A stretch of DNA of 24,469 nt from a virus (taxonomy: Duplodnaviria; Caudoviricetes), in IMG/VR virus record IMGVR_UViG_3300029318_000096, positions 1 to 24,469 of that record. One strand, written 5' to 3'. This document shows, one piece after another, positions 7,227 through 23,464 of this stretch. The notes beneath the pieces are model-generated. The model searched no databases. It was not told where the DNA came from and saw nothing but the letters and a program-made list of their open reading frames with translations. Both the position numbers and the translations under genes were made by a program. Numbering within the stretch: position 1 is the first letter of the stretch; the number at the start of each line of letters is the position of its first letter.

Positions 7227-10041
7227 AGGTATTCAGCAGGTAGTTCAGAAGGTTGTATCTTGGTTTATAGATATTCCTGAAATTCCTGATATTCCTGAAG
7301 TTGAGGAGATCAGAGGAACACTTATAAATAAATCCTCAAATAATGCACAAATACCAGTCATCTATGGAGAAAGATTGGTAGGCGGTACAAGAGTTTTTTT
7401 ACAAACTAGCGGAACAGATAATACATATCTTTATGGTGCATTGGTTTTATGTGAGGGTGAAATTAATGCAATTACACAAATTCAAGTAAATGATAGTGCA
7501 GTCACATTCTCAGGCAGCTTTGCTAGTGGATCTACAATAACATCAAATGATAGTAAGTATGGCACTACAATCCAAGTACAACCTTTTTATGGTGCTGACG
7601 ATCAAGCAGCTTCAAGTTTACTATCAACCTTATCCAACTGGGGTAGTAATCACAAGCTATCTGGAATTTGCTATCTTGCCTTTAGAATAACTTGGGATGC
7701 TGACAAATATACTGGTATTCCAAACTTTAAAGTAAAAGTTCAAGGAAAAAAAATATCAACATTTGATAATTCTAGTAATGAAACAACAGGACAATATTCA
7801 ACAAATCCTGCTTTTATTCTTTTAGATTTTATGAGAAATGAAAGATATGGAAAAGGTATTCCACTAACTGAATTAGATATTCCTAGCTTCTATGCAGCTT
7901 CACAGGTGGCAGATACTACAGTCACATATTTCACAGGAACTACAGGTAAATTATTTGAATGTAATGCAGTATTAAATACTAATAAGCAAATATTAGACAA
8001 TGTTAGAACTCTTTTAAGAGGAATGAGAGGGCTTTTACCTTATGTGCAAGGTAAATATAAATTAATTATTGAAACTACTGGCACTGCTGCATTTACTTTA
8101 AATGAAGATAATATTATAGGTGGTATAAAGCTAGAGAGTGAAAGAAAAAACGAAAAATACAACAGAGTTTTAGTAAACTTTGTCAATCCAGATAAAAATT
8201 ATCAATCAGATACTATTGTTTATGATACTGACCATGCAACCTTAAAAACTGCAGATGGTGGCTTTTTACAAGAAGGAAATGTGACTTTAACCACAATTAC
8301 TTCACCATATCAAGCACATGAGTTTGGTAAAATAATATTAAACAGAAGTAGAGATAATTTAAAACTAGGATTAACTGCTAATTATGAAGCATTGGATCTA
8401 GCTATTGGAGATATTGTAAATGTCACTTCTACAATTTTGGGAATGACGAACAAACCATTTAGAGTTAGTGGAATGACACTAAATGCAGATTTTACTGCAG
8501 CATTATCTTTACAAGAGCATCAAGATAGTTGGTACACATTTAGCACTATTTCCGAAGTTGCAACCATTGGAGATACATCTTTTCCTGATCCATTTACAGT
8601 TCAAGCACCTGCTTCATTAACATTAAGTGATGATTTAGTTGAATATAATGACGGAACTGTAATAACCAGATTATTAGTGACTGTTGGTGCTTCACCTGAC
8701 CAATTTGTTGATGACTATGAGATAGAGGTCAAACAAACATTAGATAAAGATGGTAATGCAGTATCAGATAGTTTTAGAATTGTATCTCAAGGTAAATCTT
8801 TAGAATATCAATTAATCAATGCGGTAGATGGTGCAACTTACGAAGTAAGAGCAAGAGGTATTAACTCATTAGGTGTAAAATCATCTTATACCTCAGGAAC
8901 TCACAAAGTAATTGGTGCTACAGAGCCACCTGCTAATGTGACTGATTTTAGTATATCTTTGATAGGATCAGATCAGATGCAGCTTTCATGGCTACCAGTC
9001 ACAGATTTAGATGTAGAAAGTTATGAGATTAGATATGAAAAAGTAGCTAATGGCACAGAATGGTTTAATTCTACTGATCTTGTCAGAGTACCTAGAAGAA
9101 GTGCAAACAGTGTTATCTTAAACAGGATTGATCCGCCATTTACTTTATCTATCAAAGCTATTGATAAATTAGGAAATGAAAGTCTTGAGCCAAACTTTAT
9201 TACTTCATCTAATGTAGCAGCAGAAGGATATAAGCAAATATCCTCAATCACAGAGCATCCAACATTTGATGGCACATTTACCAATACATTTAAAAGAACA
9301 GATACTGGTGCAGCAGGGGGAACTAATTGTATTACCTTAGATACAATTACTACCTTTGATGAAAAAACAGGCTTATTTGATGCGGTTGATAGTGCTTATG
9401 TATTTGAAACAGGCGGTGTAAATGAGAATATAATATCCAGTGGCACATATGATTTTAATAGTACATTCAGTTTACCTTTTGTTTATGATGCAACATTCAA
9501 AATACAATTAGATATGGTTGCAGATGATCCTTATGATTTATTTGATTTTGGTAGGGGTGAAACCTTATTTGAAAATGCCAAAGCACCTTTTGATGGAAAC
9601 TTACCTACCAATGCAGGAACTAATATTCAGATTGGTGCAAGTGAAACAAGCCTTGATGCTATCTCTACATTTACTGGTGTTGCACAACAAGGAACATTTA
9701 GGGGTAAGTTCTTTAAATTTAAAGCAAAATTAATTTCATTAAATAATCAATCAAGAGCATTGGTTAAAGGATTAACCATAACTCTAAATTTACAAAACAG
9801 GCAGGAAACAGGTGAAGATGTCAGTAGTGGTGCAGGAACTTACAGTGTCACCTTTACAAATCCATTCTATGCAAATCCTAATATCAATGTCACTGGTCAG
9901 AATATGTCTAGTGGAGATTATTTTGTAGTTGCTAATAAGAGTATCTCAGGTTTTGATGTCACTTTTTACAATTCTAGCAATTCTGCTATTTCAAAAACTT
10001 TTGACTATCAAGCTAATGGTTATGGCTTGAAATCTGCGTGA
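7210..10041 (+). CDS. Central tail tip / host-specificity protein (lambda J-like, FN3 repeats)
   Basis: 943 aa; 'IPVIYGERLVGG', 'STNPA.ILLDF..N.RYGKG', FN3-type 'YEVRARGINSLGVKS'. Confidence 0.88.
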   Translation: MSNIVKGIQQVVQKVVSWFIDIPEIPDIPEVEEIRGTLINKSSNNAQIPVIYGERLVGGTRVFLQTSGTDNTYLYGALVLCEGEINAITQIQVNDSAVTFSGSFASGSTITSNDSKYGTTIQVQPFYGADDQAASSLLSTLSNWGSNHKLSGICYLAFRITWDADKYTGIPNFKVKVQGKKISTFDNSSNETTGQYSTNPAFILLDFMRNERYGKGIPLTELDIPSFYAASQVADTTVTYFTGTTGKLFECNAVLNTNKQILDNVRTLLRGMRGLLPYVQGKYKLIIETTGTAAFTLNEDNIIGGIKLESERKNEKYNRVLVNFVNPDKNYQSDTIVYDTDHATLKTADGGFLQEGNVTLTTITSPYQAHEFGKIILNRSRDNLKLGLTANYEALDLAIGDIVNVTSTILGMTNKPFRVSGMTLNADFTAALSLQEHQDSWYTFSTISEVATIGDTSFPDPFTVQAPASLTLSDDLVEYNDGTVITRLLVTVGASPDQFVDDYEIEVKQTLDKDGNAVSDSFRIVSQGKSLEYQLINAVDGATYEVRARGINSLGVKSSYTSGTHKVIGATEPPANVTDFSISLIGSDQMQLSWLPVTDLDVESYEIRYEKVANGTEWFNSTDLVRVPRRSANSVILNRIDPPFTLSIKAIDKLGNESLEPNFITSSNVAAEGYKQISSITEHPTFDGTFTNTFKRTDTGAAGGTNCITLDTITTFDEKTGLFDAVDSAYVFETGGVNENIISSGTYDFNSTFSLPFVYDATFKIQLDMVADDPYDLFDFGRGETLFENAKAPFDGNLPTNAGTNIQIGASETSLDAISTFTGVAQQGTFRGKFFKFKAKLISLNNQSRALVKGLTITLNLQNRQETGEDVSSGAGTYSVTFTNPFYANPNINVTGQNMSSGDYFVVANKSISGFDVTFYNSSNSAISKTFDYQANGYGLKSA

Positions 10042-18450: not shown

Positions 18451-18880
18451 TAGATTAAGAGAAAGTATTATAGCCCATGAAGGTATTAGATATAAAGCCT
18501 ATGCAGATCCGATCTTAGGAGAAACTGCTATGACTACAGGGGTTGGTCATCTAATTAGATTACCTCAGGAAGAAGAACTCTTAGAGAAAGAACTGACAAT
18601 GGATGAGGTTATGGAAATACTTGATGGTGATATTGAAGTAGCCCTAAAAGATGCAAGAAGATTTATTGATGAAGATAGCATCCCTGAGGAAGCATTTGAG
18701 ATAGTTGTAGAACTTTCATTCCAGTTAGGCTATCCAAGATTATCAGGCTTTAAAAAATTCCAAGCTGCTCTAAAAGAGAATAATTTTTTATTAGCAAAAT
18801 CTGAGATGCTTGATAGCAAATGGGCTAGACAAGTTCCTGCAAGAGCAAAAAATTTATCAGATAAGATGGGTGAAATATAA
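18440..18880 (+). CDS. Endolysin, T4-type lysozyme (GH24)
   Basis: 'HEG.R.KAY.D.....TTGVGH' catalytic region and 'EMLDSKWARQVP.RA'. Confidence 0.88.
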   Translation: MDISRLRESIIAHEGIRYKAYADPILGETAMTTGVGHLIRLPQEEELLEKELTMDEVMEILDGDIEVALKDARRFIDEDSIPEEAFEIVVELSFQLGYPRLSGFKKFQAALKENNFLLAKSEMLDSKWARQVPARAKNLSDKMGEI

Positions 18881-19388: not shown

Positions 19389-19532
19389 GTGATAACATCT
19401 ACCTCATCATTATCAGTTTTAATTAAACCAAGAATAATTGGTAGTAAGGGTAGAACATTTAAAAAGCTAACTTTTGGTAAGTATAAAAGAAAAATGCCTA
19501 AGTTAAGAATTAGAGCCAAGAGGATATTCTAA
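19389..19532 (+). CDS. 47-aa highly basic peptide (not in ORF track)
   Basis: GTG immediately after the previous TAA; MITSTSSLSVLIKPRIIGSKGRTFKKLTFGKYKRKMPKLRIRAKRIF; ends inside the terminator loop; no clear SD. Confidence 0.45.
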   Translation: MITSTSSLSVLIKPRIIGSKGRTFKKLTFGKYKRKMPKLRIRAKRIF

Positions 19533-19552
19533 AAATACCCTCTTGGTTTTTT
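19516..19552 (+). terminator. Intrinsic terminator ending the late operon
   Basis: CCAAGAGG (19516-19523) / CCTCTTGG (19539-19546), followed by TTTTTT. Confidence 0.75.
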
Positions 19553-19590: not shown

Positions 19591-19878
19591 ATGAAATATT
19601 CTAAAAATACAATACTCTACATAGAATTTGACGATCATGTCAGCACCTCACCATCTTGGGAAACCTTAGAAGAATTTAAAAAGAACAAAGTAGGCAAATG
19701 TATTGCAGTTGGCTTCTATGTTATGTCAGATGAAAAAGCGATCTATATTAGCACCATGAACTCCGAAGATGAACTGGGATCAGGTCATGTAATTCTTCAC
19801 AGTTGTATTACCCATATATCAGAGCTAAAAATACCCAAAAAACCTGTTTTAAAGCCCATACAAGCACCATCTAAATAA
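19591..19878 (+). CDS. Stand-alone hypothetical protein, possible Sm/Hfq-like beta-barrel
   Basis: 95 aa; pattern 'LYIEFDD...W...C.AVGF.V..DEKAIYI...G..HVI..SCI..I'; no obvious SD (possibly leaderless). Confidence 0.6.
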   Translation: MKYSKNTILYIEFDDHVSTSPSWETLEEFKKNKVGKCIAVGFYVMSDEKAIYISTMNSEDELGSGHVILHSCITHISELKIPKKPVLKPIQAPSK

Positions 19879-19911
19879 AAAAGGGCAACTAGCTGATCAA
19901 ACTAGCTGCCC
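19877..19911 (-). terminator. Minus-strand intrinsic terminator
   Basis: Minus-strand RNA GGGCAGCUAG-UU-UGAUC-AG-CUAGUUGCCC-UUUUUU. Two G-U pairs form only on this strand (A-C mismatches on +), and the U tract is only on this strand. Confidence 0.75.
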
Positions 19912-19951
19912 ACAGGAGGAACTTATTTAACTAAAGCTGAAAAATAAGACT
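19877..19951 (-). ncRNA. Candidate anti-Shine-Dalgarno small RNA
   Basis: On the minus strand: 5' hairpin (7-bp stem 19922-19928/19942-19948), single-stranded UUCCUCCUGU (19921-19912), terminator stem (19911-19883) and U6. The 5' end is estimated from a putative promoter. Confidence 0.55.
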
Positions 19952-19957
19952 AATTCC

Positions 19958-19986
19958 TAAATATACGAAAAAGCCTTTAAAAACAA
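19958..19986 (-). promoter_or_regulatory. Putative promoter for the minus-strand sRNA
   Basis: TTGTTT (19986-19981), 17-nt spacer, TATTTA (19963-19958); an overlapping TATATT lies at 15-nt spacing. Weak match in AT-rich DNA. Confidence 0.35.
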
Positions 19987-20022: not shown

Positions 20023-20052
20023 TTGACAAATTATAAAAAAAAATGGTAAAAC
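20023..20052 (+). promoter_or_regulatory. Sigma70-type early promoter
   Basis: Perfect TTGACA (20023-20028), 18-nt spacer ending TGG, TAAAAC (20047-20052); upstream AT tract; heads the early operon. Confidence 0.65.
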
Positions 20053-20083
20053 TATATCAATGAAAAATACAGGAGAAACAAAA

Positions 20084-20563
20084 ATGAAAGTTCAATTATC
20101 AATGCCAAGACTTACAAGAGATGATAGGTTTGAAAAACTTATCTTAGAGGCTACACAATTTTTTGCTAAAGAATTGATGTCAGTCAGAATGATGAACACA
20201 ATCAAGATTAAGATTGATGTTAGAAAAACAACCTTAGACAAAAACACTTATGGTCAAGTAGCTAGCAAGTGCATGGGTTCAGTAAGACAAAAAGAGTTTA
20301 GAATTACTTTGCAGTATAACAGAATGGATAGTGATATCTTAACAACTCTTGCACACGAAATGATCCATGTTGAGCAGATTGTTTCTGGTCGTTTACAATA
20401 CAGATATTGGAAATCTGATCATCAGCTTCATGCTCGTTGGGAAGGTAAAGAGTTAGGTGTTAAATCACATATTCCTTATGAGGAACAGCCTTGGGAGATT
20501 GAAGCATTTAATAATCAATATGCTTTATTCAAAAAATATTATTTTCATGGGAGAACAGTATAA
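20084..20563 (+). CDS. Putative zinc metallopeptidase (HEXXH)
   Basis: 'TLAHEMIHVEQ' plus downstream 'PWEIEAF'; ATG 20084 follows SD AGGAG (ATG 20060 is an alternative, possibly leaderless start). Confidence 0.72.
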   Translation: MKVQLSMPRLTRDDRFEKLILEATQFFAKELMSVRMMNTIKIKIDVRKTTLDKNTYGQVASKCMGSVRQKEFRITLQYNRMDSDILTTLAHEMIHVEQIVSGRLQYRYWKSDHQLHARWEGKELGVKSHIPYEEQPWEIEAFNNQYALFKKYYFHGRTV

Positions 20564-21898: not shown

Positions 21899-21916
21899 CC
21901 AAAGGAGGAACTTAAT

Positions 21917-22054
21917 ATGCAAGAAATAGAAAAATCAGTATGTGATGTTTGTAAAGGCAATCACTATTTCATTGATGAAGATGGAAATGTCAATCAATGC
22001 CCTGAGTGCGTAAATCAGGGCTATGTTGATGAAGGAGAACTACCAGATGAATAA
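21917..22054 (+). CDS. 45-aa zinc-ribbon protein (not in ORF track)
   Basis: Strong SD AAGGAGG; MQEIEKSVCDVCKGNHYFIDEDGNVNQCPECVNQGYVDEGELPDE (CxxCxG...CxxC). Confidence 0.75.
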   Translation: MQEIEKSVCDVCKGNHYFIDEDGNVNQCPECVNQGYVDEGELPDE

Positions 22055-22244
22055 TGAAACTAAACCATTCATGCACATTTTAAACAAGTGCTTTGAAAGA
22101 GAGGGAGAATTTGAAATCCCATTAGTTAAACGACAGGAGGAAGATAATGAAAGTAATACTACTATTACTACTTACCGCTTTCCTAAGTTCATGCTCATCA
22201 AAAATAATACACGATCCGAGAGGGAACAAGGGAGAAGAAGTTAG
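22047..22244 (+). CDS. Hypothetical protein
   Basis: ATG 22047 after AAGGAG; the 3' half overlaps the lipoprotein gene by about 100 nt. Confidence 0.45.
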   Translation: MNNETKPFMHILNKCFEREGEFEIPLVKRQEEDNESNTTITTYRFPKFMLIKNNTRSEREQGRRS

Positions 22245-22440
22245 TATGCGATATTTAGACGATAAATATAGCTGCGAACAATTAGCCAGAGAAAATACAA
22301 GTAATATTGTTGAAGGCTATAAAGTCATTCATAACTGGTATATTAGACCATCTTTTCTTTTCTTAATTGATAAGATGGAATATAGTTATGATAATTTAGT
22401 AAAGGAATGTTTACGAGGTCGTGGACATTCCATACTTTAG
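22147..22440 (+). CDS. Lipoprotein
   Basis: 'MKVILLLLLTAFLSS-C' lipobox; two further Cys; SD AGGAGG. Confidence 0.75.
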   Translation: MKVILLLLLTAFLSSCSSKIIHDPRGNKGEEVSMRYLDDKYSCEQLARENTSNIVEGYKVIHNWYIRPSFLFLIDKMEYSYDNLVKECLRGRGHSIL

Positions 22441-23177: not shown

Positions 23178-23194
23178 ACACACAGGAGAAACTA

Positions 23195-23455
23195 ATGAGA
23201 AAGATACACGAATATAAGATCAAATCTTTATACAAAGGATTTGCACCAGTTAGAGATAAAGTAATCAATGACTGTAAGATCAGAAACCAAGATATAGCTA
23301 TTTTGGTTTATAACAAAAAAATGATACTGCCTATTGAGAGTTTTGAAAACTTCTCTTACTCAGTACCAGTGAAAGATAAATTTACTTCTGACATTCATCA
23401 GCTTTTGTATTTTGAATTTAAGGAAGAAAACAAACAACAAACTAATTTATTCTAA
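23195..23455 (+). CDS. Hypothetical protein (86 aa)
   Basis: ATG 23195 after AGGAG; the track's TTG 23030 would overlap SSB and the hairpin. Confidence 0.6.
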   Translation: MRKIHEYKIKSLYKGFAPVRDKVINDCKIRNQDIAILVYNKKMILPIESFENFSYSVPVKDKFTSDIHQLLYFEFKEENKQQTNLF

Positions 23456-23464
23456 GGAGGAACT

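Follow-up and report, generated by a model that had tools for sequence, protein, structure and literature searches.

Described RNAs of related design

Most phage small RNAs (sRNAs) described so far were found in temperate phages of enterobacteria and Vibrio. The c4 RNA of P1/P7 is structured, pairs in trans around the phage's own ribosome-binding site (RBS) and blocks translation; it underlies heteroimmunity and regulates antirepressor synthesis in temperate phages (accessible text of PMC12197685). The same text presents VpdS of VP882 and PreS of lambda as base-pairing sRNAs in phage development that bind Hfq and act on host RNAs. The CI RNA of P4 is processed from the transcript that it controls, uses two pairing sites on the early leader and acts by termination in lysogens (PMC4825925, in the part available). 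The Cuckoo/RSs0680/alpha-r14 sRNAs of Alphaproteobacteria, described from bacterial genomes, carry CCUCCUCCC in each hairpin loop (accessible part of PMC4615179). Here, a stretch of viral DNA of 24,469 nucleotides (nt) was analyzed (IMG/VR record IMGVR_UViG_3300029318_000096; Duplodnaviria, Caudoviricetes; referred to as the window), in which an initial annotation had placed, at 19877..19951 on the minus strand, a candidate sRNA against Shine-Dalgarno (SD) sequences. The element is real and conserved, and it is probably transcribed. We consider it likely that it is a small RNA gene whose seed is complementary to extended early RBSs and that it represses early translation as a group. The evidence consists of conservation, covariation in the stems, a wobble bias toward the minus strand, complementarity to early RBSs, seed flanks matched by lineage, and movement together with the early operon.

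Judged from its sequence, the element would work like c4, resembles Cuckoo in design, and recalls P4 CI RNA where two pairing sites are predicted, yet it departs from the defining features of c4 and Cuckoo. Like c4, it is by computation complementary around RBSs of the phage's own mRNA. Unlike c4, its predicted targets are several early and recombination genes, its seed lies in a linker, and the Rfam model of C4 antisense RNA was not matched. No integrase, CI-type repressor or antirepressor was detected among 51 open reading frames (ORFs) of the complete relative G001, scanned against Pfam (29 of them also against PHROGs); a winged helix-turn-helix gene is present. The lifestyle switch proposed in the initial annotation is therefore unsupported. 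With Cuckoo, as far as the available part of its description goes, the element shares variable stems, two to four adjacent hairpins, one conserved anti-SD-like motif and an alphaproteobacterial setting; it differs in being phage-borne, in having a single UUCCUCCUG between hairpins instead of a motif in the loops, and in flanks matched to phage RBSs. Neither the element of the window nor those of nine relatives matched any Rfam model, those of Cuckoo included. P4 CI RNA, too, is small, phage-encoded and pairs with the early leader at two sites, as predicted here for one family (B, below), but the present element lies on the opposite strand behind its own predicted divergent promoter. VpdS and PreS are phage-encoded base-pairing sRNAs, as predicted here; neither is described in the accessible text of PMC12197685 as mirroring the RBS class of its own phage. 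No description of the element was found in the literature titles and abstracts searched. Among the supplements of PMC10690425, which cover 10,000 viral structured RNA candidates, files 3-6 held no match, and the remaining archives and large files may list it.

Fold, strand and conservation of the predicted RNA

The letters of 19877-19951 agree with those quoted earlier, and the minus strand folds as had been claimed. The predicted 75-nt RNA (19877..19951, minus), a member of family A below, opens with the 5' hairpin P1 of 7 base pairs (bp) (19922..19948, minus; arms 19948-19942 and 19928-19922). It continues with the unpaired 10-nt seed UUCCUCCUGU (19912..19921, minus), whose core CCUCCU at 19919-19914 is invariant among relatives, and closes with P2 (19877..19911, minus), a 12-bp stem with two G-U pairs followed by U6, the predicted intrinsic terminator in family A. 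The fold reached -22.5 kcal/mol (z -3.86; equaled by none of 200 shuffles), compared with -14.9 kcal/mol (z -2.09) for the plus strand of the same interval. A terminator scan gave the stem 19911-19883 on the minus strand and none on the plus strand there, again as first described. Between the element and the first early gene, the minus strand has no ORF of 50 amino acids (aa) or more.

Relatives were gathered by alignment of the 95-aa gene that neighbors the element, which yielded 58 loci from viral and 72 from metagenomic records, some contigs occurring in both; together with the window they number 131. AGGAGG, the core read on the plus strand, was found within 200 nt of the stop of this gene in 125 of the 131 syntenic loci; the other six are three contigs that end too early and three rearranged loci. 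Enough flank was available in 120 loci, giving 49 distinct RNAs of 65-165 nt in three families: A (11, including the window), B (28) and C (10). The conserved motif, (U/A)UCCUCCU(G/A), occurs as a single copy in the linker. Families A and C have two hairpins and B has three; the P1 sequence is replaced in B and C, where a 5' stem is still predicted, weakly so in B. The expectation of a conserved linker thus held, with the seed core retained in relatives while both stems are replaced wholesale. The unpaired probability of the seed is 0.91-1.00 in A and C. In P2 of 19 A and C sequences, double changes were observed at 6 of 8 pairs and 97.4% of cells were paired, compared with 42-60% in slid controls and with 0 of 500 shuffles as good; in family B, double changes occur at 5 of 13 pairs. 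The terminator part of the initial claim was upheld for A (U-tail in 10 of 11) and B (28 of 28, at the third hairpin), not for C (1 of 10): the conserved property is the seed, not a terminator role of the 3' hairpin. An intrinsic terminator is accordingly predicted from the sequences for A and B, and in all but one of the family C RNAs no U-tail marks the 3' end.

Several variants were observed within this set. In L218:527-606, a family C 5' hairpin is fused at the seed to a family A terminator, and four family B RNAs (L181, L183, L186 and L187) are preceded by an A-like promoter. ACUAUA in the loop of the third hairpin of most family B RNAs and AACCUCAC in the 3' tail of family C are conserved in open or weakly paired regions; the latter is complementary to GAGGUU of family C early RBSs. 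Beyond the syntenic loci, a covariance model of A and C was run on 89 sources, among them four pelagiphage isolates and 73 loci with the gene at 18880 as anchor, and matched the window alone; this model is insensitive, because three family B elements in the searched set (G001, G004 and G009) were missed. Pattern scans gave at least 239 matches, and among those listed 11 passed an architecture filter, eight of the same clade and three likely due to chance.

The strand was assessed by Watson-Crick-only folding, in which single internal mismatches were counted in distinct contexts. G-U wobbles were found on the minus strand in 17 contexts and on the plus strand in one, with 10 contexts of other kinds; 56% minus is expected from composition (p ~5e-4, kinship ignored). 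The minus strand folded better in 40 of the 49 distinct RNAs. Upstream of the RNA, a TTG-NNN-N16/17-TA site was present in all 39 distinct sequences, with 3.6 expected from shuffles, and ends 3-6 nt before the assigned 5' boundary; hexamers differ per family and spacers vary. In the window, the predicted promoter (19958..19986, minus) consists of -35 TTGTTT at 19986-19981, N17 and -10 TATTTA at 19963-19958, which places the predicted RNA start at ~19951. An own promoter, as in trans-acting base-pairing sRNAs generally, is thus predicted.

Early ribosome-binding sites as predicted targets

The early promoter as read from the sequence (20023..20052, plus; TTGACA-N18-TAAAAC, with TG before the -10) stands back to back with the promoter of the RNA. 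The leader behind it (20060..20086, plus) is the first predicted target: it has an ATG at the predicted start, ACAGGAGAAAC at 20069-20079 and a second in-frame ATG, and would pair with the RNA by 7 bp, a bulge and 3 bp. Further matches lie on the plus strand over internal early genes, namely a 12-nt perfect match to the seed region at the RBS of a Cys-rich ORF of 45 aa starting at 21917 (21903..21914), 10-nt perfect matches at the RBSs of gene 22147 (22133..22142) and of the PD-(D/E)XK exonuclease gene 23465 (23455..23464), and ACAGGAGAAAC, identical to the motif of the first leader, at the RBS of the ORF starting at 23195 (23182..23192). By composition, each 10-mer RBS match has a chance expectation of ~0.03 occurrences in the window. 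The seed thus finds matches on the SDs of genes inside the early block, as far as 5 kb off. In 116 of 120 loci the RBS of the first early gene was located beyond a divergent promoter-like site, at 145-170 nt from the seed; the other four are without an RBS match. A conserved, exposed seed complementary by computation to distant mRNAs is what would be expected of a base-pairing sRNA.

Two observations concern these targets. Of 68 distinct early leaders, 65 have the ATG that opens the leader at the predicted transcription start in the same frame as the SD-led start, and a leaderless start there could yield a longer isoform or an escape from the RNA. Gene 22147-22440 encodes a conserved protein of 97 aa whose N terminus we read as lipoprotein-like; it is a candidate exclusion protein, and in several genomes its RBS ranks near the top of the seed matches.

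Target specificity was evaluated in 11 genomes, with start regions taken from crude gene calls of our own. Of 172 early start regions, 41 gave a seed duplex of -14 kcal/mol or lower, compared with 2 of 371 late ones. When the core was held fixed, real flanks performed better than random flanks at <=0.017 in 7 of the 11 genomes. The anti-SD seed of the initial annotation needs to be qualified: it would be aimed at SD-led early phage genes, yet instead of a generic anti-SD sequence it follows the phage's own extended early RBSs, in the window over 10-12 nt.

RNA and first leader also change together. Mean binding energies to the first leaders of A, B and C were -13.7, -7.7 and -12.8 kcal/mol for family A RNAs, -9.6, -13.0 and -9.4 for B, and -11.8, -7.6 and -12.2 for C, so that whole RNAs bind the leader of their own family best, clearly so for B versus A/C. 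In most family B leaders, AUGUUAAA at the start is followed after 4-5 nt by AGGAGAAUA. Family B RNAs carry a second site, UUUAACA, after P2, and it matches the first 8-10 nt of the leader in all 32 distinct pairs; A and C RNAs match the 5' start of their own leaders by at most 5 nt. The distance from seed to second site in the DNA of family B varies from 19 to 73 nt, but the interval always consists of one hairpin (P2) and 0-5 unpaired nt (28 of 28 RNAs). Constant folded spacing with varying DNA spacing fits two RNA arms lying side by side and is hard to reconcile with DNA operators. A match between P1 of family A and the 5' end of the leader was not significant within the family (p 0.13) and was not used.

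In the three rearranged loci the exonuclease gene converges on the 95-aa gene, which indicates that the early operon is inverted. One such record, G011 (locus L493), was long enough for a test of co-movement. It has an element of the same layout at 9108-9186 (z -5.3), which is divergent from the inverted operon and lies at a distance of 5 kb from the 95-aa gene. Its seed flank is new and matches the first early RBS over 11 nt and four further early genes over 7-10 nt. The element has therefore moved with the early operon and is tied to the early promoter rather than to the late/early boundary at which the initial annotation had placed it. Comparison lends good support to a divergent sRNA of hairpin, seed and hairpin directed at SD-led early phage genes; it does not support the generic seed, the boundary placement or the lifestyle switch.

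Mode of action, alternatives and setting

The predicted transcription, pairing in the cell, repression and timing would combine as follows. On entry, host polymerase would start from the RNA promoter and the early promoter, back to back. Early proteins would be made at once, and the short RNA would accumulate with a delay. It would then mask the extended SDs in the first leader and at several genes further inside the early block, so that recombination and host-interaction proteins would be damped and late genes would escape. Early synthesis could thereby be shut down without a protein repressor. Exclusion of related phages by the RNA is possible. An extension, in which RBS flanks are standardized as a private address that is read by one RNA and diverges with it, would make the system a protein-free early timer that also silences incoming relatives, with A/C and B as RNA-defined superinfection-immunity groups in phages whose relatives infect the most abundant bacteria of the ocean; we put this forward tentatively and as doubtful.

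A number of findings weigh against an early-gene repressor RNA. The RNA is a transcript predicted from sequence; 9 of the 28 family B RNAs fold equally well or better on the plus strand; and the promoter pattern was defined after inspection of the same sequences, with a candidate in G011 whose 19-nt spacer falls outside it. The seed of family B is unpaired with a probability of only 0.30-0.95, and 9 of 10 family C RNAs have no U-tail. Stronger SDs in early genes explain much of the target bias (AGGAGG in 46 of 172 early and 11 of 371 late start regions), and real flanks exceeded their own shuffled versions in no more than 5 of 11 genomes, the four of family A among them. A and C hardly discriminate between each other's leaders, and family B seeds alone have no preference for B start regions (-10.7 vs. 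-11.8 on C). Because only three families and G011 are available, kinship can mimic co-change.

Among the alternatives, the one that survives best, although improbable, is that a real RNA pairs with the early leader and that the outcome is premature termination, decay or refolding, and not occlusion. That family B would pair not only with the SD but also with the extreme 5' terminus of the predicted early mRNA is in line with this, as is the precedent of P4 CI RNA, which is reported to terminate via two sites (PMC4825925, available part); the matches on the SDs of several genes further inside the early block, as far as 5 kb off, fit a gene-by-gene translational block instead. We regard it as quite unlikely that host mRNAs, or SD-led mRNAs generally, are the main targets of a generic anti-SD sponge. 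The invariant core is indeed CCUCCU and the comparison with shuffled own flanks was nonsignificant in 6 of 11 genomes, but the flanks and the second site of family B track the phage's own leader. The same low probability applies to DNA-level direct repeats, as operators for phage proteins or recombination tracts, beside a plain terminator that halts backward transcription from the AT-rich early promoter. Read on the plus strand, seed and second site repeat the early leader in direct orientation, close relatives have exchanged first early genes at this leader, and chimeric elements such as that of L218 are joined at the seed; variable DNA spacing at constant folded spacing, the wobble bias to the minus strand with its conserved, dedicated promoter-like site, and retention of P2 without a U-tail in family C speak for an RNA. 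Least credible is a plus-strand feature (relic RBS, micro-ORF, or early-leader decoy read through from the 95-aa gene), for although the nine family B variants above fold at least equally on that strand and AGGAGG is followed by GTG (4 nt on) in 25 and by TTG in 13 of 76 distinct flanks, the ATG that would have marked a relic RBS follows in none, the GTG frames are only 5, 6, 8 or 12 codons long, the window has no ATG, GTG or TTG after ACAGGAGGAAC, and G011 retains the element without an adjoining 95-aa gene. A reading as primase site or origin (CTG next to a hairpin, as in origins of single-stranded DNA phages) was set aside, as it leaves promoter and RBS matching unexplained.

The window belongs to a phage related to HTVC111P-type pelagiphages, and its plus strand holds every credible gene. 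Capsid, tail and lysis genes extend to ~19530. A hairpin with a T run (19515..19552, plus; -14.9 kcal/mol) is a predicted late-operon terminator that was absent from the terminator-scan output. Downstream of it lies the 95-aa gene (19591..19878, plus; function unassigned), which converges on the RNA and whose stop codon overlaps the U6 tail, and then the early block on the plus strand with an ERF annealing protein and the PD-(D/E)XK exonuclease. Phages 97% identical over the intergenic region can have different first early genes behind the same leader (window 20084 vs. L001:3470), which amounts to cassette swapping with retention of the predicted target site. With the large tail proteins of four pelagiphages, HTVC026P, 202P, 111P and 112P, that of the window shares 40-52% identity; this group is reported to be lytic and to have no integrase (bioRxiv 10.1101/2019.12.14.876532, accessible part). 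DNA similarity of the window to cultured phages was limited to chance-level matches, and no cellular copy of the 95-aa gene or the capsid gene was found in the genome contigs searched, so the assignment of a likely SAR11 host is drawn from tail-protein identity. PMC12753301 mentions neither sRNA nor HTVC111P, and the available part of PMC2704228 contains nothing on Hfq in the host.

Possible analogs were noted elsewhere. In an unrelated phage with the window's first early genes (L007:2790-2842; L008 ~2840-2890), a U-rich linker plus terminator without a CCUCCU core lies on the early strand behind an SSB-like gene and has 13 nt of complementarity, with one bulge, to the first RBS of that phage, a possible analogous RNA. 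In HTVC202P and HTVC111P (L023 and L024), four successive minus-strand hairpins occupy the record-end/gp01 junction. Their last loop, UCUCUCUC, shows complementarity of 8-10 nt with the start regions of an early gene on the plus strand and of 7-8 nt with that of the DnaD-domain gene. These hairpins are testable in cultured phages.

How early genes are shut off in small lytic phages that have neither their own polymerase nor an obvious repressor is largely an open question. The element predicts its own targets, and natural variants of seed and leader are ready swap controls for reporters. If an early-gene repressor RNA is correct, it would provide a compact programmable translational repressor, and regulon-wide silencing of RBSs would serve as a timing device in SAR11-type phages.
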